DNA of 32,000 nucleotides from positions 1 through 32,000 of the forward strand of contig OY780959.1 in assembly GCA_963675915.1 (NCBI GenBank), in the 5' to 3' direction. Below are positions 3,588 through 21,028 of this stretch, one piece after another. Position numbers and translations under genes: made by a program. The stretch comes from Coprobacillaceae bacterium. GTDB lineage: Bacteria; Bacillota_I; Bacilli_A; Erysipelotrichales; Coprobacillaceae. Positions within the stretch are counted from its first letter, which is position 1. The number at the start of each line of letters is the position of its first letter. The notes beneath the pieces were generated by a model, which was given only the letters and a program-made list of their open reading frames with translations, ran no database searches and was not told where the DNA came from.

Positions 3588-6500
3588 TTATAATGCGACC
3601 GAGTCTTCGGTATTGACAGTCAGATATTCGAATCGTTCCAGATAAATATGGCCTGACTCATAAAGCCCCCCATCGATTGTCAGCAAAACGCGGTTGTTTT
3701 GATAATAACTGCCAAAGGTGTTGGCAATACATTGAAGCATCATTGCCTCGTATCCCGAACCAGCGTTCATTTCAGTGATATAATCTTGGCTAAGATCGAT
3801 ATAGACCATGCCATCGCGGTTGAGATAGTACCAGTTGATTTTGGTGTTGGTTGAAAAAACCGGACCAACACCGGCAGGAACGTCCTTATAGGCATTTTGC
3901 AGGACAATTCTGGTGATATCGTTGGTATGGAAACTGATATTCCGGGTTTCAAAATAAATTTTATCATCATTGATATTCGGGTAGAAAAACCGAATATTCT
4001 GAACCAGGGGAGTATCGTACTCTACGGTCTTGAGTGATGAGCTTACTTCGTAGCCTTCACCGGTATTGACCTGTTTTACCAGTCCGATACCTTCGACATA
4101 ATAATCGACATTCTGGTAATTGGCAGCGGAATTGGTAACTTCAATGGCATTATAGCTGCCACTTGGAGTAGTTACATTGGCGGAAACACTGGTGATTGTC
4201 CGGGTTGTTCCGTTGCTTAACTGCCAGCTGGTACCTACTTCGATTGGTCCTTGAAGCAGGATTTCCGAAGTGTTGTTTTTATTTAGGGAATTTTCCCGAT
4301 AGTATGTTTCGGCTTGATTGTAAACGACGGTAATCCGGTTTTCTTCGATATTGAGAACCCGGACAACTTCGGTTCCGGTATTGTTGATTCGCTGTTGAAT
4401 TTTTGAAGCGTTGGTATAGTCTACATAGACATCATAGCCTGCATATTCATTGCCATCGCCTTCATAGACATAGTGAGTATTTTCCAGAATTGGGAAATAA
4501 CTTTGAGCGGTTGTATCGGCCGAATCGACCAATGTTGAAAGATCTTTACAGTCGTCGGTTTTGACATCCAGATATTCAAATCGGCCCAGCGCGATATGCC
4601 CGGACTCATAAAGACCACCGTCGATGGTCAAAACGACATCATTGACCCCGTAATATTCACCGAAGGTATTGGCGACACACCGCAGAATCATGGCTTCGTA
4701 TCCGGCCCCGGCATTCATCTCACTGATAAAAGCCTGATTGAGATCGATATAGGCCATTCCGTCCCGGTTGAGATAGTACCAGTTGATTTTGGTGTTGGCT
4801 GAAAATACCTGTCCCGGCTGGTTTTCAATCTGTTCCTTGTAGGCGTTTTGCAGGATGATTCTGGTGATATCGTTGGTATGGAAACTGATATTCCGGGTTT
4901 TAAAATAAATTTTATCATCATTGATATTCGGGTAGAAAAACCGAATATTCTGAACCAGGGGAGTATCGTACTCTACGGTCTTGAGTGATGAGCTTACTTC
5001 GTAGCCTTCACCGGTATTGACCTGTTTTACCAGTCCGATACCTTCGACATAATAATCGACATTCTGGTAATTGGCAGCGGAATTGGTAACTTCAACGGCA
5101 TTATAGCTGCCACTTGGAGTAGTTACATTGGCGGAAACACTGGTGATTGTCCGGGTTGTTCCGTTGCTTAACTGCCAGCTGGTACCTACTTCGATTGGTC
5201 CTTGAAGCAGGATTTCCGAAGTGTTGTTTTTATTTAGGGAATTTTCCCGATAGTATGTTTCGGCTTGATTGTAAACGACGGTAATCCGGTTTTCTTCGAT
5301 ATTGAGAACCCGGACAACTTCGGTTCCGGTATTGTTGATTCGCTGTTGAATTTTTGAAGCGTTGGTATAGTCTACATAGACATCATAGCCTGCATATTCA
5401 TTGCCATCGCCTTCATAGACATAGTGAGTATTTTCCAGAATTGGGAAATAACTTTGAGCGGTTATATCGGCCGAATCGACCAATGTTGAAAGATCTTTAC
5501 AGTCGTCGGTTTTGACATCCAGATATTCAAACCGGCCCAGCGCGATATGCCCGGACTCATAAAGACCGCCATCGATGGTCAAAACGACATCACTGACCCC
5601 GTAATATTGACCAAAAGTATTGGCGACACACCGCAGAATCATGGCTTCGTATCCGGCCCCGGCATTCATCTCACTGATAAAAGCCTGATTGAGATCGATA
5701 TAGGCCATTCCGTCCCGGTTGAGATAGTACCAGTTGATTTTGGTGTTGGCTGAAAATACCTGACCCGGTTGGTTTTCAATCTGTTCCTTGTAGGCACTTT
5801 GGAGAACAAAGCGGGTGATATCATTGGTGTTGAAACTGATGGCCCGAGATGTGTAATAGATTGTGTCGTCGTTGATATTTGGATAATAGAAGTTGATGTA
5901 CTGGATCAACGGAGTATCTTCTTCGATAGTTTCCAGAGAAGCAGTGACTTCATAGTTTGCCGCGGTGGAGATACTTTTCACCAGTCCGATATCCTTGACG
6001 TAATAATCATGAGTTGTCGAATCCGGATATTCGGTTGTAACTTCGATTGCGGTGTAATTACCACTAGGAGTGGTAACGGCTATAGCCCCGTTGGTGATGC
6101 TACTGGTTACCCCGGCACTTACCGTCCAGGTTGTTCCTACGGCAATGGGACCTTGAAGCAATACTTGGGAAGTGTTGGTTTTATTCAAGGCATTTTCACG
6201 ATAATAAACTTCGCCTTTTTCGTAGACGCAGGTAATTCGGTTTTGTTCAACCTTGATAACTCTGATCATTTCAGTTCCGCCATTGTTGATTCTCAGTTGG
6301 AAGCTGTCTTCATCGAAAAAATCCACATAGGCATCATAAGAAGCATATTCATTTCCGGACCCTTGATAAATGTAATGGACATTGTCAAGAATTGGGAAAT
6401 AATCACTGGCGACGCTTGTCACATCGACATCATTGCCATACTCGCTGATATCCAGGGAATTGATGGTGTCAACTGTCAGATATTCGCCTTCCATGAATGC

Positions 6501-7457
6501 AAAGTGCCCGGATTCATACAGCTCGCCATCAATTGTCAGATTGACATTGTTTACCATATAGTAGGAACCGAAAGTATTGGCGATGCTTTGGAGAATCATT
6601 GCTTCAAAGCCGGAACCGGCATTCATTTCGGTCAAAAATTCCTGATTCAAATCAAGCTTTACGACATCTTCTTCCATCAGATAATATTCATTGATCTGAG
6701 TGTTGGTCGAGAATACCCGGCCCAGTTCCTCAGGATGTTCATCCTTGTAAGCGGCAGCCATAATGGCTCCGGTTATATCGTTGGTACCAAATTCCAAATC
6801 AACTGACTTGTAGTAGTACAGGTCACTTTCAATGTCAGGATAGTATAAATTGACTGTTTTGGTCATCTTGACGTCATTTTCAATCCCAATCAACAATGAG
6901 GAAACCTGCATGTTTTGAGCGAGGTATTCCGTCTTGACTAGACCGATATCCTTGACGTAGTAATCGATAGTTTGATAGTCGAGTCCCTCGGTGGTTACCG
7001 CAACGGCACTGTAATTGGTGTCGGGGGCCTCAACGGTCGTATCGATGCTGGTTATTGTCCTGGTGAGATTGTCTTGAACCGTCCAGGTTGTTCCCACTTC
7101 GATAGGATCTTGAAGCAAGACTTCATTGATTTCGTTTTTGGCCAGGAAATTTTCCCGATAGTAAATTTCGCTTTGTTGGTAGACAAGGCTGACCTGATTA
7201 TCTTCAATTGCGAGCACTTCGACGGTTTCACTGCCCCCGTTATTGATCCGCTGTTGAATGTGGTTGCTGTCATTGTAATCAATATAGACATCAAAAGATG
7301 CATATTCATTTCCTTCGCCCTGGTAAATATAATGGACGTTTTCGAGAATCGGAAAATAGTCCATTGCGGATGTGGTTGTTGGCACATCCGTCACATTACA
7401 CGCTGTTGCGAGCAAGAGAATCAAACTTAACTTGATGACAAAAGTGATTTTTTTCAT
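3588..7457 (-). CDS. Giant lipoprotein (1289 aa) with four tandem [unknown domain + GerMN-like domain] modules
   Basis: Lipobox LLLATAC and SD AGGAG 7 nt upstream. The (D/S)YFPIL(E/D)N module start recurs at 7361, 6404, 5453 and 4502, spaced 957, 951 and 951 nt. Each module ends with a GerMN-like segment. Confidence 0.9.
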   Translation of the reverse strand: MKKITFVIKLSLILLLATACNVTDVPTTTSAMDYFPILENVHYIYQGEGNEYASFDVYIDYNDSNHIQQRINNGGSETVEVLAIEDNQVSLVYQQSEIYYRENFLAKNEINEVLLQDPIEVGTTWTVQDNLTRTITSIDTTVEAPDTNYSAVAVTTEGLDYQTIDYYVKDIGLVKTEYLAQNMQVSSLLIGIENDVKMTKTVNLYYPDIESDLYYYKSVDLEFGTNDITGAIMAAAYKDEHPEELGRVFSTNTQINEYYLMEEDVVKLDLNQEFLTEMNAGSGFEAMILQSIANTFGSYYMVNNVNLTIDGELYESGHFAFMEGEYLTVDTINSLDISEYGNDVDVTSVASDYFPILDNVHYIYQGSGNEYASYDAYVDFFDEDSFQLRINNGGTEMIRVIKVEQNRITCVYEKGEVYYRENALNKTNTSQVLLQGPIAVGTTWTVSAGVTSSITNGAIAVTTPSGNYTAIEVTTEYPDSTTHDYYVKDIGLVKSISTAANYEVTASLETIEEDTPLIQYINFYYPNINDDTIYYTSRAISFNTNDITRFVLQSAYKEQIENQPGQVFSANTKINWYYLNRDGMAYIDLNQAFISEMNAGAGYEAMILRCVANTFGQYYGVSDVVLTIDGGLYESGHIALGRFEYLDVKTDDCKDLSTLVDSADITAQSYFPILENTHYVYEGDGNEYAGYDVYVDYTNASKIQQRINNTGTEVVRVLNIEENRITVVYNQAETYYRENSLNKNNTSEILLQGPIEVGTSWQLSNGTTRTITSVSANVTTPSGSYNAVEVTNSAANYQNVDYYVEGIGLVKQVNTGEGYEVSSSLKTVEYDTPLVQNIRFFYPNINDDKIYFKTRNISFHTNDITRIILQNAYKEQIENQPGQVFSANTKINWYYLNRDGMAYIDLNQAFISEMNAGAGYEAMILRCVANTFGEYYGVNDVVLTIDGGLYESGHIALGRFEYLDVKTDDCKDLSTLVDSADTTAQSYFPILENTHYVYEGDGNEYAGYDVYVDYTNASKIQQRINNTGTEVVRVLNIEENRITVVYNQAETYYRENSLNKNNTSEILLQGPIEVGTSWQLSNGTTRTITSVSANVTTPSGSYNAIEVTNSAANYQNVDYYVEGIGLVKQVNTGEGYEVSSSLKTVEYDTPLVQNIRFFYPNINDDKIYFETRNISFHTNDITRIVLQNAYKDVPAGVGPVFSTNTKINWYYLNRDGMVYIDLSQDYITEMNAGSGYEAMMLQCIANTFGSYYQNNRVLLTIDGGLYESGHIYLERFEYLTVNTEDSVAL
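3908..5796. repeat. In-frame tandem direct repeat, period 951 bp (317 codons), about two copies, nearly identical
   Basis: 3908-4845 and 4859-5796 align base for base at an offset of 951, with only about a dozen mismatches visible by eye (for example 3949 c/t and 4145 t/c). Confidence 0.9.
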
Positions 7458-7915
7458 ATTATCGCTCCTAAACTATTATTTAAACTTTATCGTTATGAGT
7501 TTTAGAAGATGTCTATGATTTAAATGACTGGTATTCAATTGTTAGTAAGCAGGGAAAACCATCGGACATGACGCTCAGGATAATGATTTAAAGTGTAATT
7601 AGCCATTGGTCTTTTGTTGTGACTGGGGATTGTCGTTATTATCAATTGTGTAGATGAAAAAAACAGTGGTTTTATCTACCTAAATTATACCACTAATTAT
7701 TAAAAGATACAGTATTTTATCATTTGTCCGAAACTTTTAGTCCTATTTAGGTATTTTATTCCAAACTGAGGTTATTGGGGATATCATTTAAGCGGTGATG
7801 ATTGAGCCTGAGTTGTATTAATCTCTTGGTTGTGATTTAATTAAAGTAGTAAAGTGGCTAATTGTCACCTAAAGTCAGTACGTCAGTCAGTGATTACTTA
7901 TCGGAGGTGGGTATC

Positions 7916-8497
7916 GTGATTTCAGAAAAATTAAAAATAATCGGCTTACTTATGATTGGCGGGGCACTGGGGGGATCACTGACGGGATGTTCTGGAATCT
8001 CCAGCCGGCTCGACAATGATTATGACCCGGATAAATACTATATTTATGTCAATCCCGAGATGGGCGAATTCAGTGATGTTTCCCAATACGACCAGATGAC
8101 TCATATCTATTTGATGAATTTGGAAATTCCTGACGATTTTGAAAACGAAGAAGAAAAGCTCCATTTGAGCGAGATTTATAATCGGAGTTTCATTGATAAT
8201 AATCAGGAATACAGCTTGGAAATCGAAAAGGCCACTCAATGGGAAAATATTCACTTATATGACCCTGAAGGGAATGTCCTTATTGATTTTGACACTGGAA
8301 CTATTGTCGAGGAAGTCGTGTCAATCGGGATTACCAGTTCAAATTACGAGACCGCGACGACGTCCCAAAATGTGACTTTTACTGAAGAGACCGAACTGGT
8401 GAAGCTGCATCTTATTTTAAATAAAGCAATTGTCGAATATAATTATGAACCGGTATTATATAATTTTAATCTGATTGTCCTGATTGATTTTAAGTGA
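7916..8497 (+). CDS. Small lipoprotein, family shared with 8565-9104 and with the C-terminus of 9579-11345
   Basis: GTG start 9 nt after GGAGGTG. Signal peptide with lipobox SLTGC. The C-terminus VKLHLILNKAIVEYNYEPVLYNFNLIVLIDFK matches the two neighbours. The ORF-track start at 7862 has no SD. Confidence 0.75.
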   Translation: MISEKLKIIGLLMIGGALGGSLTGCSGISSRLDNDYDPDKYYIYVNPEMGEFSDVSQYDQMTHIYLMNLEIPDDFENEEEKLHLSEIYNRSFIDNNQEYSLEIEKATQWENIHLYDPEGNVLIDFDTGTIVEEVVSIGITSSNYETATTSQNVTFTEETELVKLHLILNKAIVEYNYEPVLYNFNLIVLIDFK

Positions 8498-8564
8498 AAA
8501 GTGGCTCAATTCAAAGAAAATGGGCTTTTGGTAGAAATTTCAAACAAAGAGAAGAGGTGGCCAA

Positions 8565-9104
8565 ATGGGTGGCAAGCATACGATGAATTTTATGAAATTG
8601 ATTTTGCCGGTTGTCATCCTGGTTGGTCTTGGTGGCTGTTCAGTTGAAAACGGTTGGGATACAACCAAAGTTTTTGGTTTTTTGGATGAAGCTCCAATGG
8701 AAGCAACGGATATCAGTGATTTTGAGTATCTGGCTGTCTACGATTTGAGTAATGAGCCTGACAGAGCCCCCTTTGATCATCTGGAAATACCTCTTTCCCA
8801 TGCCGGGGAGGGCTATATTTTCAAAATCGAAACTGAGGAACAATGGCCGACATGTTTGTTGTTGAACAATCAACAAGACATTTTAATCGAATATTCCTTG
8901 GTCAATATAATTGATGACCTGATTGATGGAGAGAACGGTTATCAGGTAGGAGATGATTACATTTACCTGGAACATGAATATTCCCGTCAGGAAACCTGGA
9001 ACGATATCACAATGAAGCTCGTATTTTTCCGTGCTACCGTCAATTATAATTACACTCCTCCAAGTTATTCTTTCGAATTTGCGCTATTGCTTGATTTTGG
9101 CTGA
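8565..9104 (+). CDS. Small lipoprotein, paralog of 7916-8497
   Basis: SD GAGGTGG. Signal peptide with lipobox GLGGC. C-terminus ITMKLVFFRATVNYNYTPPSYSFEFALLLDFG. Confidence 0.8.
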   Translation: MGGKHTMNFMKLILPVVILVGLGGCSVENGWDTTKVFGFLDEAPMEATDISDFEYLAVYDLSNEPDRAPFDHLEIPLSHAGEGYIFKIETEEQWPTCLLLNNQQDILIEYSLVNIIDDLIDGENGYQVGDDYIYLEHEYSRQETWNDITMKLVFFRATVNYNYTPPSYSFEFALLLDFG

Positions 9105-9112
9105 TGCTTGTC

Positions 9113-9150
9113 AAAACCCGATTATCCCATAGCAGGTAAATCGGGTTTTT
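9113..9150 (+). terminator. Intrinsic terminator after the lipoprotein pair
   Basis: AAAACCCGATT-15 nt loop-AATCGGGTTTTT. Confidence 0.8.
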
Positions 9151-9540
9151 CCATCAGGAATCTTCTTTAATTCTGATGATATCAAACTGGTCTGTGGTCA
9201 TTTTGGGGCATGATTGAGGATTGTAAGAGCGGAGGAAAATATTTACCACGTGAGTACTAAATTGATAATTTGTAACCGGATTTCTTGAATTTGAGGCCCG
9301 GATATGGTTAAATAAAAGAAAGAGATATAAAGTAATGATTTGATTTATATTGAGAATAAATATTTAACAAATTATGTGTTTGTGTATTAAAATCGAAAGC
9401 AATTATCCCGTTAATAACTCTAAATGTGAGATAATTGTATTTTTATCTTATTTTGAGGTCATCGTGATAGCGGGTCTGAATTATCAACCCATAGTAAACT
9501 CACCTGGAAAAGGTGAAAATATATCCGAGGATGTTTTTTG

Positions 9541-9561
9541 AATAGTTTATGATAAACTATT
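9541..9561 (+). promoter_or_regulatory. Perfect 21-bp palindrome abutting the SD of the membrane-protein gene
   Basis: AATAGTTTA-tga-TAAACTATT, 9-bp arms. It lies 18 nt upstream of the ATG at 9579. Could be an operator or a translational hairpin. Confidence 0.35.
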
Positions 9562-9578
9562 ATGAAAGGATGATATCG

Positions 9579-11345
9579 ATGAACAATCTATCGAAAGTAT
9601 TTGATCGTCTTAAAGGCTTGACCAAAGCAATCATTCGTTATCCGTTGACTGAGGCAATCCTGGTGGCGGCGGCAATCTTGAACACAATCGCCATCAATAC
9701 GACATTCGAATATGAAAAAGAGTTGCTGTCCTTGTTGGTTGGAGCGGTTTTGACCGCGACTTTGCAAGGTGTCTATGAACGTTTTTTCACCAAGGATCTC
9801 TACCGTTTCGGTTTGATGATTCTAGGGGCCTTGTTGACCTTTGGATATTATCTGATTTTACTTAGAGCTCCGGAATTATCAGTTGAAATCATGGTTAGAA
9901 CCCTGGTGGCCTTGTTTGCCCTGCTGATTGGGTATATCTGGGTGCCGGTTATCAAGAGCAATACTGATTTCAATGCGAGTTTCATGGCGGTTTTCAAGGC
10001 GTTTTTCCAGACTGTCCTGTACTCAGGTGTGTTATATGGGGGCGTGAGTCTGATCATTTTCGCAATCAATTATTTGATTGTTGAAGTCAGTGGTAAGGCA
10101 TTTGCCCACAGTGCTAATATCGTATTTGTGCTTTTTGCACCGCTGTTCTTCTTTTCTCTGGTGCCGGTTTTCCTTGGGGAAAGACATAAGGATCTCGGGA
10201 CCGAGGAACTTGAACCCCTTGAAGCAGCGATAGCCAAAGCAACTTATTGCCCGAGATTTCTGGAAATTCTGATTTCCTATATCATCGTGCCGGTTGCGGC
10301 TGTTTACACCGTGATTTTGGTTTTATATATCGGACTTAATGTGACCGGAAGTTTCTGGTCGCGAAATCTGATGGAACCTTTGCTGGTAAGTTATGCTATT
10401 GCCGTAATTCTGGTCTACATCCTGTCGAGCACGATTGACAACAAGTTTGTCAATCTGTTCAGAATGATTTTCCCGAAAGTGCTGGTTCCGGTAGTGTTGT
10501 TCCAGATTGTCTCTTCATATCTTAATCTTGGCAATACCGGGATTGTCCATACCAAATACTATGTCTTGCTTTTTGGAGCATTCGCGGCGTGTTCCGGAGT
10601 GGTGATGAGTATCTTCCCACCTAAACGAAACGGAATTATAGCCGGATTGTTGATTGCTTTTGCTTTGGTGTCGATAGTCCCACCGGTCGATGCCTTCACT
10701 GTTTCGAAAAACAGTCAGATCAATATGCTTGAAGCAGCTTTAAAAGCCAATGGAATGCTGGAAGATGATGAAATCATTCCCAATGGAAATGTGAGTGAAG
10801 ATGATCGGATTAGAATCTCTCAATCGGTATCATATCTCTACAATATGGGTTATCTCGACCAACTTTCTTTCATGCCCGGAGACTTCAGAATGTACAGTGA
10901 TTTCTTCGATACATTTGGCTTCAATGAGTATTATGATTCTGATTATCCAAACGGAGAATTCCGTGATTTCTATGTTAATTATGATTATTCAAGACCTTTT
11001 GATGTATCGGGATACAATTTTGTTCGGACTTTGAGCCTGCATGAAGAAGGATATTTCGAGTCGGCGAATTTCACTGACGGCAGTGAAACATATCACTTCG
11101 AACTTGAAGGTATGAATCTGGTTTTCATGGACAAGGCCGGCAGCGTGGCGATTACTTTCAATCTCGATAAAATTATGACCGAAGTCGAAGCGATGCCAAA
11201 TGGGATGTTTAGCGAAGAAAAATCATTTGAAGCTGAAAATGATGTTGTCAAAGTAAAACTTATCCTGACAAATGCGCAAATTATGTATTATGGCGCTGAT
11301 CGCTCTTATTATGTGGACTTCTTTGTTGCGGTCAAATTCAAATAA
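9579..11345 (+). CDS. Polytopic membrane protein (about 11 TM, DUF4153-like from memory) with a ~220-aa C-terminal extracytoplasmic domain
   Basis: Start chosen at the ATG 8 nt after AAAGGA; the 9549 ATG lies in the loop of the palindrome. Eleven hydrophobic segments. The C-terminal soluble region ends VVKVKLILTNAQIMYYGADRSYYVDFFVAVKFK, like the two lipoproteins. Confidence 0.85.
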   Translation: MNNLSKVFDRLKGLTKAIIRYPLTEAILVAAAILNTIAINTTFEYEKELLSLLVGAVLTATLQGVYERFFTKDLYRFGLMILGALLTFGYYLILLRAPELSVEIMVRTLVALFALLIGYIWVPVIKSNTDFNASFMAVFKAFFQTVLYSGVLYGGVSLIIFAINYLIVEVSGKAFAHSANIVFVLFAPLFFFSLVPVFLGERHKDLGTEELEPLEAAIAKATYCPRFLEILISYIIVPVAAVYTVILVLYIGLNVTGSFWSRNLMEPLLVSYAIAVILVYILSSTIDNKFVNLFRMIFPKVLVPVVLFQIVSSYLNLGNTGIVHTKYYVLLFGAFAACSGVVMSIFPPKRNGIIAGLLIAFALVSIVPPVDAFTVSKNSQINMLEAALKANGMLEDDEIIPNGNVSEDDRIRISQSVSYLYNMGYLDQLSFMPGDFRMYSDFFDTFGFNEYYDSDYPNGEFRDFYVNYDYSRPFDVSGYNFVRTLSLHEEGYFESANFTDGSETYHFELEGMNLVFMDKAGSVAITFNLDKIMTEVEAMPNGMFSEEKSFEAENDVVKVKLILTNAQIMYYGADRSYYVDFFVAVKFK

Positions 11346-11363
11346 ATAATATTATAAATCAAG

Positions 11364-11402
11364 ATACTCTAAAAGCCTCAATTACGGCTTTTAGAGTATT
11401 TG
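11364..11402 (+). terminator. Intrinsic terminator
   Basis: Perfect 14-bp stem ATACTCTAAAAGCC / GGCTTTTAGAGTAT followed by TT. Confidence 0.75.
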
Positions 11403-11466: not shown

Positions 11467-13572
11467 ATGGTAAATAATCAACTGTTTATGCGGCTTAGAT
11501 TATTGTCTACCCAGGATACCAATCAAGTCCATATGTTCAGCTCAATTATTGACACAATTGGAAAAAGCCTCGATCTTTCCCGAGTCAGAGTATTTTTAAA
11601 CAATAAGAAATCCAATCACACCAAATCGATTGCCACCTGGGGACCGGAAAGATACCAGGGCGTCGAGCTTGATAATGAAGAATTGAAGGGAGTATATCAC
11701 CTGCTTTCCCAAAATGTGGTAATTGAAAAAGAAAAAATCGAGGAAATTTCAGGTCCGGTCTGGAATCGTCTCAACCTTGACGGAGCTGGTCCGGCAATAA
11801 TTTATCCGATTGCAAGTTCTGGAATTGTCTGGGGTTTTATTGCCTTTGCGGCAGAATCAAAAAGTCGGGAATTTGGAGTTGAGGATCGTGAAGTCTTCGA
11901 TTTTGCTGCCAAATTGATTGCCAGCAGCCTTGATTATCAAGAAAATCAAGTTGCCTCGATTCAAAGCTGTCGGAGCATTTTCGAACGTCTTGATCAGTTT
12001 GTGATTGTCTGGTATAAAAACGGAGAAATAATTTATGGCAACCAGTATATCTGCGACCTGTTGGAATATACAAGTCGGAATCTGATAAGTCACAATATTA
12101 ACGATATCACCAGAAATATTTTTGACACTAAAAGCAACAGTCCGATGGAATCGATTGCAACCGAAGACGACTGCAATGTTTCTTTGGATCTGGTTGGCAA
12201 TGGCCGGGAAACAATTTCCGCTGAGGGGCAGATCATGTCAATGACCTGGGAACACATCCATTACTCAATTGGAGTTTTCAAAAAAGTTTCTTTCCATCAG
12301 GATGAACTGATGATGTTTATCAAGATGTTCAAAAACAATCCGTCGCTGATCGCGCTGGTCAGTTTACCGGATCTCAAGTTGATTGATGCAAACATCTCTC
12401 TTGAGGATAAAACCGGTTATGGTCTGGAAGAACTCAAAGGCAAACCACTTTATCGAATCCCGCTTTTCACCGAGTCCAAAGATTATTATCCGGTGCTTGA
12501 AAAGATTGTCGAAGAGCGTGAAGCCAAAGATATCGAAATCGAGGTTCACTGCAAAAACGGCAGTATTCTTGAGGGGCTTTTTTCAGCTGAAATTATTTCC
12601 CACAAGGGCCGGGAGTATGTTTTGATGGTCTTGGTCGACATTTCCAAACAAAAACAGATTCAGGCCTTGTACGGGGAGGAAAGAAAACGCCTTAACAGTA
12701 TTATCGAGGGAACCCGTCTGGGAACCTGGGAATGGAATATCCAAACCGGGGAAATTGTTATTAATGACCGATGGGCGAATATGTTGGGCTATGATCTGGC
12801 CGAACTCGAGCCGATTTCAATTCAGACCTGGACCGATTTGATGCACCCGGATGATTTTAAGCGAAGTGAAGAATTGCTCGAACGTCACTTCAAAGGGGAA
12901 ATAAACTTTTATGATATCGAATGCCGCCTGCGTCGTAAAAACGGGAGCTGGCTTTGGGTTCATGATCGCGGTAAGGTGATTGATTGGGACTCTCAAGGAA
13001 ATCCTTTGATGATGTATGGAACTCATTCGGATATTAACAAAAAAAAGGAATTTGAAAAACGGATCAATGAGATCTCCATTAGAGATCCGCTGACCAATAT
13101 CTACAACCGGCGCTTCATTTATGAACAGTTGGAAAAAGATCTGGAACGATATAAACGCAACAATATGCTTTGTTCGGTAGCGATTCTGGATATCGATTAT
13201 TTCAAGGGAATCAATGACCGCTTCGGTCATCTTGCCGGCGATTACATTCTCAAGGAATTCACTTTGCTGATAAGTGAAAATCTGCGTGATTATGATTTGC
13301 TGGGACGATATGGCGGCGAAGAGTTCATTATCATCATGTACGACAGCAACCGCCGTGATTCGGCAACGATTATCGAAAGAATCCTGGATATAACCCGTGA
13401 GAAAAAATTCCACTACAATGGCAATGAAATAAGTTTCACCTTTAGCGCTGGAATTGCCGATATCTCCGAATTCACCCAAACTGATCTGACCAACGAAAAA
13501 ATAATCTCGCTGGCTGATCAAAGGTTGTATGCTGCCAAACAGAGTGGTCGCAACAAGATCATTTTTGACTAA
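11467..13572 (+). CDS. Cytoplasmic GAF-PAS(x3)-GGDEF diguanylate cyclase
   Basis: SD GGAGG. GGEEF at 13312-13326. RDYD (RxxD I-site) sits exactly 5 residues upstream at 13285-13296. Also DIDYFKGINDRFGH, RLYAAKQSGRN and the PAS signature GTWEWN...WANMLGY. No TM segments. Confidence 0.93.
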   Translation: MVNNQLFMRLRLLSTQDTNQVHMFSSIIDTIGKSLDLSRVRVFLNNKKSNHTKSIATWGPERYQGVELDNEELKGVYHLLSQNVVIEKEKIEEISGPVWNRLNLDGAGPAIIYPIASSGIVWGFIAFAAESKSREFGVEDREVFDFAAKLIASSLDYQENQVASIQSCRSIFERLDQFVIVWYKNGEIIYGNQYICDLLEYTSRNLISHNINDITRNIFDTKSNSPMESIATEDDCNVSLDLVGNGRETISAEGQIMSMTWEHIHYSIGVFKKVSFHQDELMMFIKMFKNNPSLIALVSLPDLKLIDANISLEDKTGYGLEELKGKPLYRIPLFTESKDYYPVLEKIVEEREAKDIEIEVHCKNGSILEGLFSAEIISHKGREYVLMVLVDISKQKQIQALYGEERKRLNSIIEGTRLGTWEWNIQTGEIVINDRWANMLGYDLAELEPISIQTWTDLMHPDDFKRSEELLERHFKGEINFYDIECRLRRKNGSWLWVHDRGKVIDWDSQGNPLMMYGTHSDINKKKEFEKRINEISIRDPLTNIYNRRFIYEQLEKDLERYKRNNMLCSVAILDIDYFKGINDRFGHLAGDYILKEFTLLISENLRDYDLLGRYGGEEFIIIMYDSNRRDSATIIERILDITREKKFHYNGNEISFTFSAGIADISEFTQTDLTNEKIISLADQRLYAAKQSGRNKIIFD

Positions 13573-16212: not shown

Positions 16213-17589
16213 ATGAAAGAAAAAGTACAAAGTGTCGGCCGCTTTCTCAGCGGTATGGTTATGCCAAACATCGGAGCGTTTATCGCTTGGGGATTGATTA
16301 CCTCATTCTTTATTCCAACTGGATGGATTCCAAATGAAACCTTCGCTGGTTTAGTTGGTCCCATTATCACATATCTTTTACCGCTATTGATTGCCTATAC
16401 AGGTGGTAAGATGGTTCATGGAGCTCGTGGTGGAGTTATCGGGGCCATTGCAACTATGGGGGTTATCGTTGGTTCCGGGAATGTAATGTTCCTTGGAGCA
16501 ATGATGGTAGGTCCGGCTGCGGCTTGGGTATTGAAACAATTTGATGAAAGAGTTGAAGATCATATCCGCCCGGGATTTGAAATGTTGATCAACAACTTCT
16601 CACTGGGAATTATTGCTTTTGGTCTGGCTTTATTGTCAATGAAAGGTATCGTTCCTGTTGTTGATGGAATCACCAATGGTTTGTCTGCAGGAGTTCAATT
16701 CTTCGTTGACAGAAATTTATTACCTCTTGCATCGCTGTTCATTGAACCGGCTAAAATCCTGTTTTTGAACAATGCCATCAATCATGGTATCTTCTCGCCT
16801 CTTGGAATTGCCCAGGTTGAAGAAGTAGGTAAGTCGATTTTCTTCCTGCTTGAAGCCAATCCGGGACCAGGTCTTGGTATTTTGTTGGCATACATGATTG
16901 CTGGAAAAGGAAACTCGAAAGCTTCTGCACCTGGTGCGATTATCATCCATTTCCTTGGTGGTATCCATGAAATTTATTTCCCATTCGTATTGATGAATCC
17001 GTTGTTGATTCTGGCTGTAATTGCCGGGGGAGCTTCAGGTGTTCTTACATTCTCATTATTCAACGTCGGTCTTACTGCACCTGCTTCACCAGGTTCGATT
17101 CTGGCAGTATTGGCGATGTGTTCAAGAGACAGTTATATCGGACTGATTTTAGGGGTAGCTATTGCAGCTGCGGTTTCAATGATTGTCGGTATTGCAATCC
17201 TGCGTTTTTCTTCAAAAGACGGTTCTTTGGAAGCGGCTCAGGAAAAAACAAGTGCCATGAAAGCTGCTGCTAAAAATGTGGCAACAACTGCGGAACCTGT
17301 TATCGGTAAAGTGAAAAAAATTGCTTTTGCCTGTGATGCCGGAATGGGATCAAGTGCCATGGGAGCATCGGTATTGAAAAAGAAAATAAAAGAAGCCGGA
17401 TTGGATATCGAAGTAATTCACACATCGGTTTCGTCAATTCCTGAAGATGTTCAAGTTGTCGTAACTCACGAAGAGTTGGAAGCTCGGGCTCGAACAAGCA
17501 ATCCAAGTGCAAAGCTGGTATTGATCACCAATTTCCTTGGTGCGCCTGAATATGACGAATTAGTTGAGTATTTACTGGAAAATAGATAG
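16213..17589 (+). CDS. mtlA: PTS mannitol-specific EIICB
   Basis: VQSVGRFLSGMVMPNIGAFIAWG, NNAINHGIFSPLG, EANPGPGLG and GGIHEIYFPFVLMNP. C-terminal EIIB has KKIAFACDAGMGSSAMGA. SD AAAGGAG. Confidence 0.95.
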   Translation: MKEKVQSVGRFLSGMVMPNIGAFIAWGLITSFFIPTGWIPNETFAGLVGPIITYLLPLLIAYTGGKMVHGARGGVIGAIATMGVIVGSGNVMFLGAMMVGPAAAWVLKQFDERVEDHIRPGFEMLINNFSLGIIAFGLALLSMKGIVPVVDGITNGLSAGVQFFVDRNLLPLASLFIEPAKILFLNNAINHGIFSPLGIAQVEEVGKSIFFLLEANPGPGLGILLAYMIAGKGNSKASAPGAIIIHFLGGIHEIYFPFVLMNPLLILAVIAGGASGVLTFSLFNVGLTAPASPGSILAVLAMCSRDSYIGLILGVAIAAAVSMIVGIAILRFSSKDGSLEAAQEKTSAMKAAAKNVATTAEPVIGKVKKIAFACDAGMGSSAMGASVLKKKIKEAGLDIEVIHTSVSSIPEDVQVVVTHEELEARARTSNPSAKLVLITNFLGAPEYDELVEYLLENR

Positions 17590-17604
17590 ATATCCCCAAA
17601 AACC

Positions 17605-17627
17605 GGGCACGGAAGTGTCCCTTTTTT
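17605..17627 (+). terminator. Weak terminator/attenuator-like hairpin between the two EIICB genes
   Basis: GGGCAC-ggaa-GTG(T)CCC with one bulge, followed by T6. Confidence 0.4.
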
Positions 17628-17652
17628 GGTATAATAACTTTAGGTGATTATA

Positions 17653-18969
17653 ATGAAAGAAAATATTATTAAAATTGCAAAGTTTTACGCTTCGGTGATA
17701 ATGTCATGCATCGGGATTTTCATCTTCCTGGGAATTTTGAACACGATAAACAGCTTTCACCCCAATGAGATTACAGCCAAAGGGACTGAGATGATAATCG
17801 ACATCATCCTCCCGGTGATGATAGCTTATCTTTCCAGCAAACGGATTTCCAACCACCAGGGTGGGATAATTGGGGCACTGGGGGTTTTGGGTCTGGTTGT
17901 CAGCCAAACGTCCTTCAATATCATCGGAGCTTTTATAATCGGAACCGGTGCCGGTCTTTTGACTGCCCGGGTTTTGGAACGGCTATTTGAAAAAATACCT
18001 TCTGGTTTCGAATTGCTGATCAAGAATCTGGTTATCGGAGTAGCGGCCTTGATAATCAACGTTGCAGCCTTGTATCTGCTTATTCCCGGACTTGAAGTCC
18101 TGGGTGATTCCTGCATCAAAGCAATCGATTATCTCATCTCCAACGAGTTGCTACCCTTGATTGCGATAATAATCGAACCGGGAAAGGTGTTCTTTTTGAA
18201 TAATTTGATCAATCACGGAATTCTGGTTCCGATTGGTCTTTCCCAGGTAAGCCATGAGGGCAGTTCGATTTTGTTTTTCCTGGAAACCAATCCTGGGCCT
18301 GGAGCCGGGGTGATTTTAGCGCTGGCATTTACCCGGAAGCGGGAATTGAAACAGATGCTTTCTTATGGGCTGGTTGAGTTTTTAGGTGGGATTCATGAGA
18401 TTTACTTTCCGATTGTGCTGGAATTCAAGCAACTGTTCATTTCGCTGATTCTCGGGGGAATGACCGGAATCATCACAATCGAACAAATGGGAATCGGTCT
18501 GACCAATCCGATAAGTCCCGGAAGTATCCTGACCATAATTCTGGGGACTACTCCCAAGATGCAATCGATGGTCATAGTTCCGATAATGGCTTCGTTTCTG
18601 GTTTCGCTTATCACCGGAATGGTTTTGCTTCAAATGAAGAAAAACCCCAAGAAAGAATTGCGCAGTGAGCCAATTCGAGCTGAAAAAATTCATAAAATCG
18701 TATTCACCTGTGATGGTGGGTTTGGATCTTCGGTGATGGGTTCTTCCCTTTTCAAACGCAAGATCAAAAAATATAATTACAATATCGAGGTTGTAGCCAA
18801 ATCAGTAGACACCATCGATGATGACGGTGATATCATCGTTTGTCAGGATGGGTTCCAGGATACTGTCAGGCAATATCAACCTGAAAAGGAAATATATGTG
18901 GTAAAAGAATTTCTGGATAATTCAAGTTACCAAAAACTGATTGAAATGATTATGGAAAGGAACCAGTGA
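17653..18969 (+). CDS. Second, divergent mannitol-family PTS EIICB
   Basis: Keeps NNLINHGILVPIG, ETNPGPGAG, GGIHEIYFPIVL and the EIIB motif KIVFTCDGGFGSSVMGS. Its N-terminus lacks the canonical MtlA motif. ATG 6 nt after AGGTGA. Confidence 0.85.
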   Translation: MKENIIKIAKFYASVIMSCIGIFIFLGILNTINSFHPNEITAKGTEMIIDIILPVMIAYLSSKRISNHQGGIIGALGVLGLVVSQTSFNIIGAFIIGTGAGLLTARVLERLFEKIPSGFELLIKNLVIGVAALIINVAALYLLIPGLEVLGDSCIKAIDYLISNELLPLIAIIIEPGKVFFLNNLINHGILVPIGLSQVSHEGSSILFFLETNPGPGAGVILALAFTRKRELKQMLSYGLVEFLGGIHEIYFPIVLEFKQLFISLILGGMTGIITIEQMGIGLTNPISPGSILTIILGTTPKMQSMVIVPIMASFLVSLITGMVLLQMKKNPKKELRSEPIRAEKIHKIVFTCDGGFGSSVMGSSLFKRKIKKYNYNIEVVAKSVDTIDDDGDIIVCQDGFQDTVRQYQPEKEIYVVKEFLDNSSYQKLIEMIMERNQ

Positions 18970-18970
18970 T

Positions 18971-21028
18971 ATGAGTTTTGCACCAAGAGTCAATAGTATT
19001 TTGCTAGAACTGTTAAAACATGATAATCTTTCCGTCAAGGAATTGGCCGCTTTGGTCGGGGTATCCAAAAGAACCATGCAGCGGGAGCTGAACAATATCA
19101 ATTATGAACTGGATGATTTTGCTCTTAGTTTCAAGACCAAACCCGGTAAGGGAGTCTGGCTTGAAGGGACCGAGGAGGCCAAACTGGCATTGCTAAGGGA
19201 AATAGAAGGCGATACCACGATTGATAATTCATCTGCCCAGGCCCGACAAAAGAAAATCCTGCTCGAATTGCTCAAGACCCAGAATGTGCAAAAAATAATC
19301 ACTTTTGCCAGAATGATTGATGTCTCCGAAGCGACAATCAGGCTCGATCTCAAGGAAATTGAAAAATGGCTCCGGTCTTTTGAGCTTGCTTTGGAAAAGA
19401 CGCCTGGTCTTGGAGTGCGTTTGCGCGGTAGTGAAGCCGATGTAAGAAGGGCAATCAGAGCCTATTTCACCAACTTTGCCACTCACAACAAATCGGGACA
19501 GCGGTTTGATGAAATCAAAGAATTCATGGTCAACAATCATCAGGAGATTACGGAATTGCTTGATGAAGATATCCTTGATCGGGTTATTGACTGTCTTGAA
19601 GACATTGACTCCAACCAGATCAGCAAGTTGACTGAAAGTTCCTACATCGGACTGGTAATCCATCTGGCGATAGTTGTCAAACGGATTCAGGATGGTGAAA
19701 CCATCACTTATAACAAAGAGTTGATTTCAAGCAGCGATGATGACAATGAGGCCAAACTGGCCAGAATTATCGCCGAGTTTCTGGAGGCGGAATTTGATAT
19801 CGAACTTGATGAAATGGAGCAATATTACATTGCACTCCATCTCAAAGGGACCAAGCACCAGATGATGGATGCCAAAAATCTGAATATCGACAATGTCTCA
19901 ATCAGGATTCTGATCAATGAAATGATTGATGCATATGATGAAAAGTTGGCTTTCCGGCTTAAACAGGATGATATCTTTATCAATGGCTTGCTGGCTCATC
20001 TCCAGCCGACCTTGATCAGACTGAACAATGACATGGTTATTTCCAATCCGTTGCTCGAGCAGGTCAAGAGCAAATATCCTATGGAATTTGAAAAATGCCA
20101 AAAGGTTGCTGATGTTCTTGAAAAGTGGACTGGTAGAGTAGTGCCCGTCGGAGAAGTCGGTTTTTTGACGATCCATTTCGGAAGTGCCGGAATCAGGATG
20201 AATGTTCAGGATAAAATCCGTCGCAAGGTAAATGTCGGGGTTATCTGCGCTACCGGAATTGGCTTGTCCCGGCTGATGGCGGTAAGTCTTGAAAAAAAAT
20301 ATGGTGAAAAAATCAATGTTTACTCCTATTCGAAAAATGATGCATTCAATGATGACAGGATCGATTTCTATCTCTCCTCAATCAAGATTGAACATCCCGG
20401 CAACAATCTGATTTATGTCAATGCGATTATCAGTGATGAAGATGAAAAAAATATCGAAACGGCAATTGAGGAATATGCTTATCAGCCTGAAAAAAATAAT
20501 GACAGGAAAATAGATGTTTTGGACAAACTAGAAAAAATTCATTATTACAGTCATATTATCAATGAACTGCTGACAAATCTGGCGGTGTTCAAGGTTTCCG
20601 GGAACAGTTCCTTTGAATCCATTGTCCGAGTGATTGATGAAGGATTGGGGGAAGCTGGCGATTTCGGAATTTATGATGACCTGATGAGAAGAGAAAAGAT
20701 CGGAAGTCAGATTTTCAAAGAACTCGGATTTGGGTTGCTTCATAGCAAAACAGCAGGAGTTGACAAGCCGCTGATTGCCATAATTATCCCGGACAAAGGC
20801 GAGAGTTTTAGCGATAAATATCTTGAAAATGTCGGAGTTATCGTTTGTCTGCTGATGCCAATCAATGACCGAGTCAGTGAAAATTCGGAAATTCTCGGCT
20901 ACTTCTCTTCAATATTGATTGAAGATGATGAGCTTCTGGGAATTCTCGGGCGGGGCGAATCGGATCAAATCACCGATTATCTCGCCAAACACTTCGAATT
21001 GTTTCTAAATAATGTGATCCGATCATAA
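18971..21028 (+). CDS. mtlR: PRD-containing mannitol operon transcriptional activator (HTH-Mga-PRD1-PRD2-EIIB(Gat)-like-EIIA(Mtl)-like)
   Basis: 685 aa. N-terminal wHTH LSVKELAALVGVSKRTMQRELNNI. PRD histidines (HLAIVVKR, LLAHLQPTL). EIIB-like VGVICATGIGLSRL and EIIA-like GLLHSKTAG. Its ATG lies 1 nt after the stop of the preceding gene. Confidence 0.92.
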   Translation: MSFAPRVNSILLELLKHDNLSVKELAALVGVSKRTMQRELNNINYELDDFALSFKTKPGKGVWLEGTEEAKLALLREIEGDTTIDNSSAQARQKKILLELLKTQNVQKIITFARMIDVSEATIRLDLKEIEKWLRSFELALEKTPGLGVRLRGSEADVRRAIRAYFTNFATHNKSGQRFDEIKEFMVNNHQEITELLDEDILDRVIDCLEDIDSNQISKLTESSYIGLVIHLAIVVKRIQDGETITYNKELISSSDDDNEAKLARIIAEFLEAEFDIELDEMEQYYIALHLKGTKHQMMDAKNLNIDNVSIRILINEMIDAYDEKLAFRLKQDDIFINGLLAHLQPTLIRLNNDMVISNPLLEQVKSKYPMEFEKCQKVADVLEKWTGRVVPVGEVGFLTIHFGSAGIRMNVQDKIRRKVNVGVICATGIGLSRLMAVSLEKKYGEKINVYSYSKNDAFNDDRIDFYLSSIKIEHPGNNLIYVNAIISDEDEKNIETAIEEYAYQPEKNNDRKIDVLDKLEKIHYYSHIINELLTNLAVFKVSGNSSFESIVRVIDEGLGEAGDFGIYDDLMRREKIGSQIFKELGFGLLHSKTAGVDKPLIAIIIPDKGESFSDKYLENVGVIVCLLMPINDRVSENSEILGYFSSILIEDDELLGILGRGESDQITDYLAKHFELFLNNVIRS

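Follow-up and report, generated by a model that had tools for sequence, protein, structure and literature searches.

Organization of the locus

We analyzed a stretch of 32,000 nucleotides from a Coprobacillaceae bacterium (assembly GCA_963675915.1, contig OY780959.1, positions 1 to 32,000), referred to as the window, and focused on three consecutive plus-strand open reading frames (ORFs) located between positions 7916 and 11345. The first two encode small predicted lipoproteins, named here LipoA and LipoB. The third, named M, encodes a membrane protein of 588 amino acids (aa) at 9579-11345. The initial annotation of this DNA had described three such proteins with a common C-terminal signature and a further shared block upstream of it. 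We found the ORFs at those positions and all of the quoted peptide blocks in their products. The features of the locus are as follows.

7916..8497, plus strand: LipoA, lipoprotein of 193 aa (ORF, lipobox, homology, AlphaFold2 model, and ratio of nonsynonymous to synonymous substitution rates, dN/dS)
8565..9104, plus strand: LipoB, lipoprotein of 179 aa, tandem paralogue of LipoA and the most diverged copy of the domain
9113..9150, plus strand: terminator-like hairpin with a T-run, directly 3' of LipoB (sequence and fold energy)
9235..9578, plus strand: conserved non-coding leader or promoter region of M, approximately 345 nt (identity to a relative)
9579..10694, plus strand: residues 1-372 of M, DUF4153-type core with 11 transmembrane (TM) helices, N-terminus predicted inside
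10695..10958, plus strand: residues 373-460 of M, predicted extracytoplasmic helical linker of three helices (AlphaFold2)
10959..11345, plus strand: residues 461-588 of M and the stop codon, beta-rich C-terminal ectodomain, putative parent of the lipoprotein domain
11467..13572, plus strand: GAF-PAS-PAS-GGDEF diguanylate cyclase downstream of M (Pfam), outside the domain duplication

LipoA starts with GTG and has the ribosome-binding site GGAGGTG upstream, while LipoB starts 67 nt after LipoA, behind GAGGTGG. A lipoprotein was defined by a positively charged N-region, a hydrophobic core and a lipobox [LVI][ASTVIG][GAS]C within approximately 35 residues, the Cys being conserved. Signal peptides of this kind, predicted to be Lgt and Lsp substrates, were found in both LipoA (lipobox L-T-G-C, Cys25, in the sequence ...GGSLTGC) and LipoB (L-G-G-C, Cys25, in ...LVGLGGC). 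Each of the two lipoproteins had only two relatives in the databases, namely a near-identical one (L001, on a 2.57-Mb contig) and one with 66-69% identity, located on short Logan contigs from SRR28393028, SRR28393039 and SRR28393042. L22, G24 and C25 were invariant in four of four lipoprotein sequences compared (the pair from the window and its relatives).

The hairpin at 9113-9150 had a fold energy of -20.7 kcal/mol (z = -3.7). A simple terminator scan skipped it, as its loop is longer than 8 nt. It likely ends a bicistronic LipoA-LipoB transcript, and a gap of 475 nt separates LipoB from M. Since the hairpin and its T-run lie directly after LipoB, the two lipoprotein genes probably form a unit of their own, and M would have its own promoter and leader.

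Between the window and the more distant relative (L082/L083), the leader of M had an identity of 89%. The adjacent coding sequences of the lipoproteins reached only 73-77%, and the N-terminal coding sequence of M reached 91%. Its consensus fold contained 95 pairs with 1 compensatory change, and the single-sequence z-score was -2.5, a weak sign of structure. No Rfam match was obtained for the leader or for the rest of the window. The leader may be a long regulatory 5' untranslated region or a complex promoter. Between M and the GGDEF gene we observed a 14-bp perfect inverted repeat (11364-11399), followed by a weak T-run only. It may be a partial or bidirectional terminator, so that in the window M and the cyclase may or may not be transcribed together.

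Relation of the lipoproteins to the C-terminal domain of M

We found 727 homologues of M, the best of them at E of approximately 1e-150 to 1e-177 and with 100% coverage. The best 120 were approximately 590-610 aa long and 44-51% identical to M over essentially the full length, except for one 97% identical relative. They came from Bacillaceae, Acetobacterium, Lachnospiraceae, Oscillospiraceae and others, and most were annotated as PF13687 (DUF4153). M itself, as well as the proteins P0001 and P0002, gave no PF13687 match at E<=1 in hmmscan and lies below the Pfam gathering threshold of 27 bits, and the 97% relative has only a 'weak' match in the precomputed annotation. Three homologues that are 45-49% identical to M (P0070, P0110 and P0014) scored 56, 45 and 38 bits, respectively, against this cutoff. 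Since M is homologous over its full length to proteins which pass the threshold, we assigned it to the DUF4153 family, of which, judged by these alignments, it is a divergent member. The DUF4153-like character proposed by the initial annotation was thus borne out.

Among the species representatives of GTDB r232 we observed no homologue more than 51% identical to M, though the search pattern DAFTVSKNSQ is present in M. The lineage of the window appears to be missing from these representatives, and its closest syntenic relative there is a metagenome-assembled genome (MAG) of Coprobacillaceae.

The hydropathy profile of M contained 11 hydrophobic segments, and its AlphaFold2 model (predicted local distance difference test score, pLDDT, 84.4; predicted template modelling score, pTM, 0.71) contained 11 TM helices. 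In the model the TM core is followed by helices at 372-390, 407-422 and 438-446 and then by a beta-rich domain at 461-587, referred to as the C-domain. The loops contained 14 lysine and arginine residues on the predicted inner side versus 3 on the outer side. According to the positive-inside rule, this supports a topology with the N-terminus inside and the C-terminus outside, the latter as the initial annotation had predicted. Independent support for a C-domain that functions outside the cell comes from the presence of the same domain behind lipoprotein signal peptides.

The homology of the lipoproteins to this domain was assessed at several levels. In BLASTP, LipoA and LipoB were 22% identical over 176 aa (E = 5e-10), and LipoA matched residues 495-588 of M with 27% identity over 105 aa (E = 9e-6). 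There was no significant BLASTP match between LipoB and M, which are linked through profiles only. Further, we compared a profile of four lipoprotein sequences with a 41-sequence alignment of M homologues of the DUF4153 family. The hhalign probability was 97.3% (E = 1.7e-11, 136 columns), and lipoprotein positions 16-168 were aligned with residues 462-588 of M, ending exactly at both C-termini. As a control for chance we built a hidden Markov model (HMM) of the C-domain from 40 DUF4153 proteins, with M of the window excluded. The scores were 39.6 bits for LipoA and 43.4 for its 69% relative, and 20.4 for LipoB and 28.3 for its 66% relative. For each sequence we also scored 2000 shuffles of unchanged composition (8000 in total), of which the best reached 13.3, 10.4, 6.3 and 5.9 bits, respectively. 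In an exhaustive hmmsearch of the four-sequence profile against 1.84 billion representative proteins, seven matches were obtained at E<=0.001. The best one outside the lipoproteins covered residues 460-597 of P0110, a DUF4153 protein of 597 aa, with a whole-library E of 9.6e-7. Motifs common to the lipoproteins and the C-domains in the combined alignment were D(I/V)xGYD, Y-x-L, L-x-D...I-x-F, F-x-x-E-N and the terminal (L/V)(I/V)x(F/I)K.

The initial annotation had itself raised the doubt that C-termini which are beta-rich and similar in composition might resemble each other by chance, without homology. The missing BLASTP match between LipoB and M and the low identities (15-28% only) speak for such a chance resemblance. 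It is contradicted by the hhalign result, by the match to a DUF4153 C-terminus in the whole library, by real scores of 20-43 bits against at most 13.3 for the shuffles, by an alignment that is collinear up to both C-termini, and by matching predicted secondary structure. We regard this explanation as refuted, with practically no weight left to it, and the similarity as homology. On this evidence, the mature parts of LipoA and LipoB are diverged copies of the approximately 128-aa C-terminal domain of M.

The initial annotation had regarded the lipoproteins as copies of the C-terminal ectodomain. Their homology to it stands, and it is limited to the terminal beta-rich 128 aa or so and does not extend over the whole extracytoplasmic region of approximately 215 aa. 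The three-helix linker (residues 373-460 of M) is absent from the lipoproteins, the hhalign match beginning at residue 462.

We also compared the predicted folds. The AlphaFold2 model of LipoA had a pLDDT of 83.8 and a pTM of 0.80. The order of secondary structure elements according to DSSP was alike in LipoA and in residues 461-588 of M (two strands, a four-strand meander, a helix and three long strands), although the models are not fully independent, as the alignment used for LipoA included C-domain sequences. Mature residues 53-63 of LipoA form an extra helix with no counterpart in the domain of M.

The initial annotation had called the domain undescribed, and this description held for Pfam, PDB and BFVD. 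In the homologues of M, the PF13687 model spans only residues 29-389 or so, that is, the TM core, and the last 200 residues or so lie outside any Pfam model. In Foldseek searches of the LipoA and M models against PDB, and of LipoA against BFVD, nothing was found at E<=0.001 and the query-normalised TM-scores were at most 0.27. For the domain alone the best PDB match had E = 0.02 (query-normalised TM-score at most 0.26), and the full M model had no analogue in PDB (best E = 0.26). PDB sequence searches with both profiles gave no match. Scans of LipoA, LipoB and M against Pfam, NCBIfam, PADLOC and PHROG gave nothing significant. When the 31 sequences of C-domains and lipoproteins were all compared with Pfam, no family recurred among them; BsuPI was matched by 5 of the 31 members, with a best E-value of 0.009 only. 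Scattered Foldseek matches to lipocalin, LolA and PUR-alpha were taken as noise.

Selection, distribution and origin of the lipoprotein pair

We calculated substitution rates relative to the 66-69% identical relative, for M over the first 128 codons only. The values were dN = 0.18, dS = 0.78 and dN/dS = 0.23 for LipoA, dN = 0.225, dS = 1.02 and dN/dS = 0.22 for LipoB, and dN = 0.017, dS = 0.43 and dN/dS = 0.04 for M. Judged by these rates, LipoA and LipoB are functional genes under purifying selection.

The position of the two genes directly upstream of their presumed parent, and their high divergence, would also be expected of decaying pseudogene fragments of a duplicated DUF4153 gene. Such decay is at odds with dN/dS of 0.22 at dS of approximately 0.8-1.0, with intact ORFs, good ribosome-binding sites and lipoboxes conserved in three genomes, and with the lack of any TM-core relics in the region 7458-9578, between the Germane-domain gene that precedes LipoA and M. 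We consider this explanation largely refuted and very improbable.

DUF4153 genes are widespread: 403 DUF4153-related stretches were present among the GTDB species representatives, in hundreds of Bacillota species. We surveyed 80 other DUF4153 loci from these representatives, including flanks of up to 6 kb at either end, and searched all their ORFs with three HMMs. No free-standing copy of the C-domain was found in any of the 80, the extra matches being frameshifted pieces of the DUF4153 gene itself. There was likewise no other free-standing copy among the 1.84 billion representative proteins searched with the four-sequence profile, and JGI metagenome contigs and IMG/VR yielded no relatives of the lipoproteins. 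The initial annotation had raised the question of whether DUF4153 genes are commonly flanked by such lipoproteins, and these searches speak against it. The lipoprotein form was seen only in the window, in a 97% identical relative and in one more distant relative, and within the databases covered it is a private invention of one narrow lineage.

Several candidates for stand-alone copies among the matches of the exhaustive hmmsearch were rejected. P0125 (178 aa) is a piece of a full-length DUF4153 gene split by a frameshift, on a low-coverage (1.5x) contig, P0126 is also a fragment, and P0127 and P0128 are beta-propeller repeat proteins which match a motif of approximately 30 residues only. Nor did small lipoproteins prove to be generally linked to DUF4153 genes: a candidate lipoprotein lay within 2.5 kb in 12 of the 79 loci outside the window, and none of them matches the C-domain HMMs.

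The closest syntenic locus, from the Coprobacillaceae MAG (L011), contains two minus-strand genes of Germane-domain lipoproteins, then M, and then an ortholog of the GGDEF gene. The lipoprotein pair is absent from it. The distance from the Germane-domain gene to M is approximately 400 nt there, versus 2.1 kb in the window, where the interval carries LipoA and LipoB. The C-domain of M and its counterpart in the L011 ortholog shared only 18% identity (E = 1.7). LipoA was closer than this to the C-domain of the neighbouring M, with 27-28% identity, and its median identity to other C-domains was 21%. In a neighbour-joining (NJ) tree computed with Poisson distances, the four lipoproteins clustered with M of the window with 63% bootstrap. 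The tandem LipoA-LipoB pair with the same spacing of approximately 67-69 nt is present in the relative L082, and the order LipoA-LipoB-M, with a gap of approximately 470 nt to M, is kept in the more distant relative.

In the simplest history that we infer for these sequences, only the 3' end of the gene for M, or for the direct ancestor of M, would have been copied to a place just upstream in the lineage of the window, and the copy would have captured a lipoprotein signal peptide. The new lipoprotein gene would then have been duplicated in tandem to give LipoA and LipoB.

Further features were observed in the neighbourhood. On the minus strand, the window encodes at 3588-7457 a lipoprotein of 1289 aa with four repeats of approximately 317 aa (951-nt period) and a Germane (GerMN) domain in each. 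Two of the repeats gave weak DUF3108-like matches, and two adjacent copies were 98% identical in DNA. The version in L001 is 972 aa long, approximately 317 aa shorter, which points to a recent gain or loss of a repeat or to assembly collapse. Between LipoA and the divergently oriented Germane-domain gene, an intergenic block of approximately 75 nt (7660-7735) was approximately 96% identical to L082; the part towards LipoA was poorly conserved, and upstream L082 ends at the block. The block is probably a shared promoter or operator.

The GGDEF gene has a 47% identical ortholog approximately 3 nt after M in L011, so that the M-GGDEF pair is syntenic, and the diguanylate cyclase is a possible functional partner of M. 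In 10 of the 80 loci and in the window, the DUF4153 gene has as its direct same-strand neighbour a gene of cyclic di-GMP (c-di-GMP) turnover (GGDEF, GGDEF-EAL, EAL or GGDEF-HD-GYP). In four more loci this neighbour is a gene of a methyl-accepting chemotaxis protein (MCP). These loci are L011, L018, L020, L026, L030, L051, L057, L060, L076, L081, L007, L008, L010 and L071; six of them are from Acetobacterium and so are not independent. A functional link of DUF4153 to signalling is possible.

Elsewhere in the window, an ISL3-family transposase (472 aa) follows a small DUF6431 protein at 453-2353, which places a mobile element approximately 1 kb from the Germane-domain gene cluster. Two tandem paralogous phosphotransferase system (PTS) EIIC-EIIB genes lie at 16213-21028, followed by a regulator with Mga and DeoR-type helix-turn-helix, PRD and EIIA domains. 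They look like an ordinary sugar-uptake operon.

Possible role and comparison with known systems

The reading that we consider probable is that, in this lineage alone, the gene for M was duplicated in part, at its 3' end, and so gave rise to accessory surface copies of the ectodomain, with a function that is inferred. LipoA and LipoB would be transcribed as their own unit ending at the hairpin, and M would keep its separate conserved leader. Processing by Lgt and Lsp would tether both lipoproteins to the outer face of the cytoplasmic membrane and so place them in the predicted compartment of the ectodomain of M. There they would most likely serve as extra or alternative copies of the extracellular binding module of M; the initial annotation had suggested that they could be interchangeable or competing modules. 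Either they would share a class of ligand or partner with M, or they would dock on its conserved outer loops, with the sequences FWSRNLMEP and DAFTVS. In this way they would broaden or adjust the range of what M can sense or handle. The binding-module step is the weakest one.

Several points weigh against this reading. An interaction of M with the lipoproteins and a shared ligand are hypothetical, and lipidation and outward topology are predicted. Transcription of the lipoprotein genes is probably separate from that of M. Neither Pfam nor PDB nor BFVD offered a fold or family match that would hint at a ligand. The clustering in the NJ tree could be long-branch attraction, as all of the sequences are divergent. 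Finally, dN of the lipoproteins was approximately 10-13 times that of the N-terminal TM region of M, which could mean relaxed constraint or a new function and not a shared role.

Some of these points fit a second explanation, in which LipoA and LipoB are independent, neofunctionalised paralogues that derive from the ectodomain of M, are now unrelated to M in function, and remain adjacent only because the duplication was local. It is favoured by the probably separate transcription unit with its terminator and the 475-nt gap, by the fast divergence of the lipoproteins (65-69% protein identity to the more distant relative versus 97% for the N-terminal 128 residues of M), by the only marginal similarity of LipoB to any C-domain, and by the fact that most DUF4153 genes work without such partners. 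The retention of the LipoA-LipoB-M arrangement in the more distant relative, and the predicted compartment, and apparently the fold, that they have in common with the domain of M, speak against it. We consider independence possible but doubtful.

The rate of evolution of the C-domain would also fit another role. Across the DUF4153 family the mean pairwise identity was highest in the core (63%), intermediate in the linker (52%) and lowest in the C-domain (39%), so that the C-domain evolves fastest. In the lineage of the window it is exceptionally diverged, only 21% identical to the other C-domains of the family, and 6 of the 14 differences between M of the window and its 97% relative fall within the 128-aa C-domain. 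If the ectodomain of M were a surface target of a phage, a bacteriocin or a host factor, the free copies could act as decoys or shields that soak up or block the agent, which would drive fast evolution of all copies, including the high dN of the lipoproteins. On the other hand, the overall dN/dS was 0.22 and not above 1, no PADLOC, PHROG or IMG/VR links were found, and there is no prophage near the three genes. This role appears quite unlikely.

Speculative, and rather improbable, is a broader reading in which the C-domain is a new, fast-evolving extracellular recognition fold. In the lineage of the window, M would use exchangeable lipid-anchored copies of it as extra specificity modules or decoys, with input to c-di-GMP signalling via the downstream diguanylate cyclase. 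If true, it would provide a first clue to the function of a membrane-protein family that is common in Bacillota and still uncharacterised.

Apart from the function, the locus shows that the C-terminal 130 aa or so of DUF4153 proteins are an autonomous, exportable module that can occur by itself in lipoprotein form. The locus also lends independent support to the outward topology predicted for the C-domain and defines domain boundaries for a new Pfam-type model. Mature LipoA offers a small soluble construct for structural and ligand work on the family. As the duplication is private to one lineage, it has only limited wider importance for biology, unless the lipoproteins can be shown to interact with M.

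We compared this arrangement with known systems. In Gram-positive ABC importers of the GlnPQ and OpuA type, the substrate-binding domain is found in two forms, as a fusion to the permease and as a separate lipoprotein. The likeness is that an extracytoplasmic binding module is both tethered to a polytopic protein and lipid-anchored on the same membrane face, and is encoded nearby. It is an analogy of architecture only, as here there is no ABC ATPase or permease signature and the domain is a beta-rich one of approximately 130 aa. LipoA, LipoB and M gave no match to substrate-binding proteins in Pfam or NCBIfam, and the neighbouring genes, which code for Germane-domain lipoproteins and for a GGDEF protein, include no ABC transporter.

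In staphylococci, the extracellular domain of the sensor BlaR1 or MecR1 and the neighbouring lipoprotein BlaZ have a common fold and ligand class. Here too the extracellular domain of a membrane protein is related to an adjacently encoded lipoprotein. The folds, however, are unrelated to that of M, and BlaR1 has a cytoplasmic protease output while M has no recognisable output domain. No enzymatic motif was identifiable at this locus.

A likeness to sensors of the Cache or PAS type lies in the DUF4153 genes that often adjoin MCP or GGDEF/EAL genes. M and the lipoproteins gave no Pfam match to Cache or PAS and no corresponding Foldseek fold match. DUF4153 was once placed in the Cache clan of Pfam, and was found to be unrelated to Cache and removed (Upadhyay et al. 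2016, PMC4822843).

The closest known relatives are the proteins of the Bacillota DUF4153 subfamily (PF13687) of approximately 594 aa, of which M is a full-length homologue, with 45-51% identity to hundreds of them across 100% of its length, and in which the C-domain is a constant part. A literature search found mention of DUF4153 in two papers only, and no known function or structure for any member. The Pfam model describes the TM core only, and stand-alone lipoprotein copies of the C-domain were not found elsewhere in the collections searched. What is new at this locus, as read from its sequence, is the DUF4153 ectodomain in a stand-alone lipoprotein architecture.

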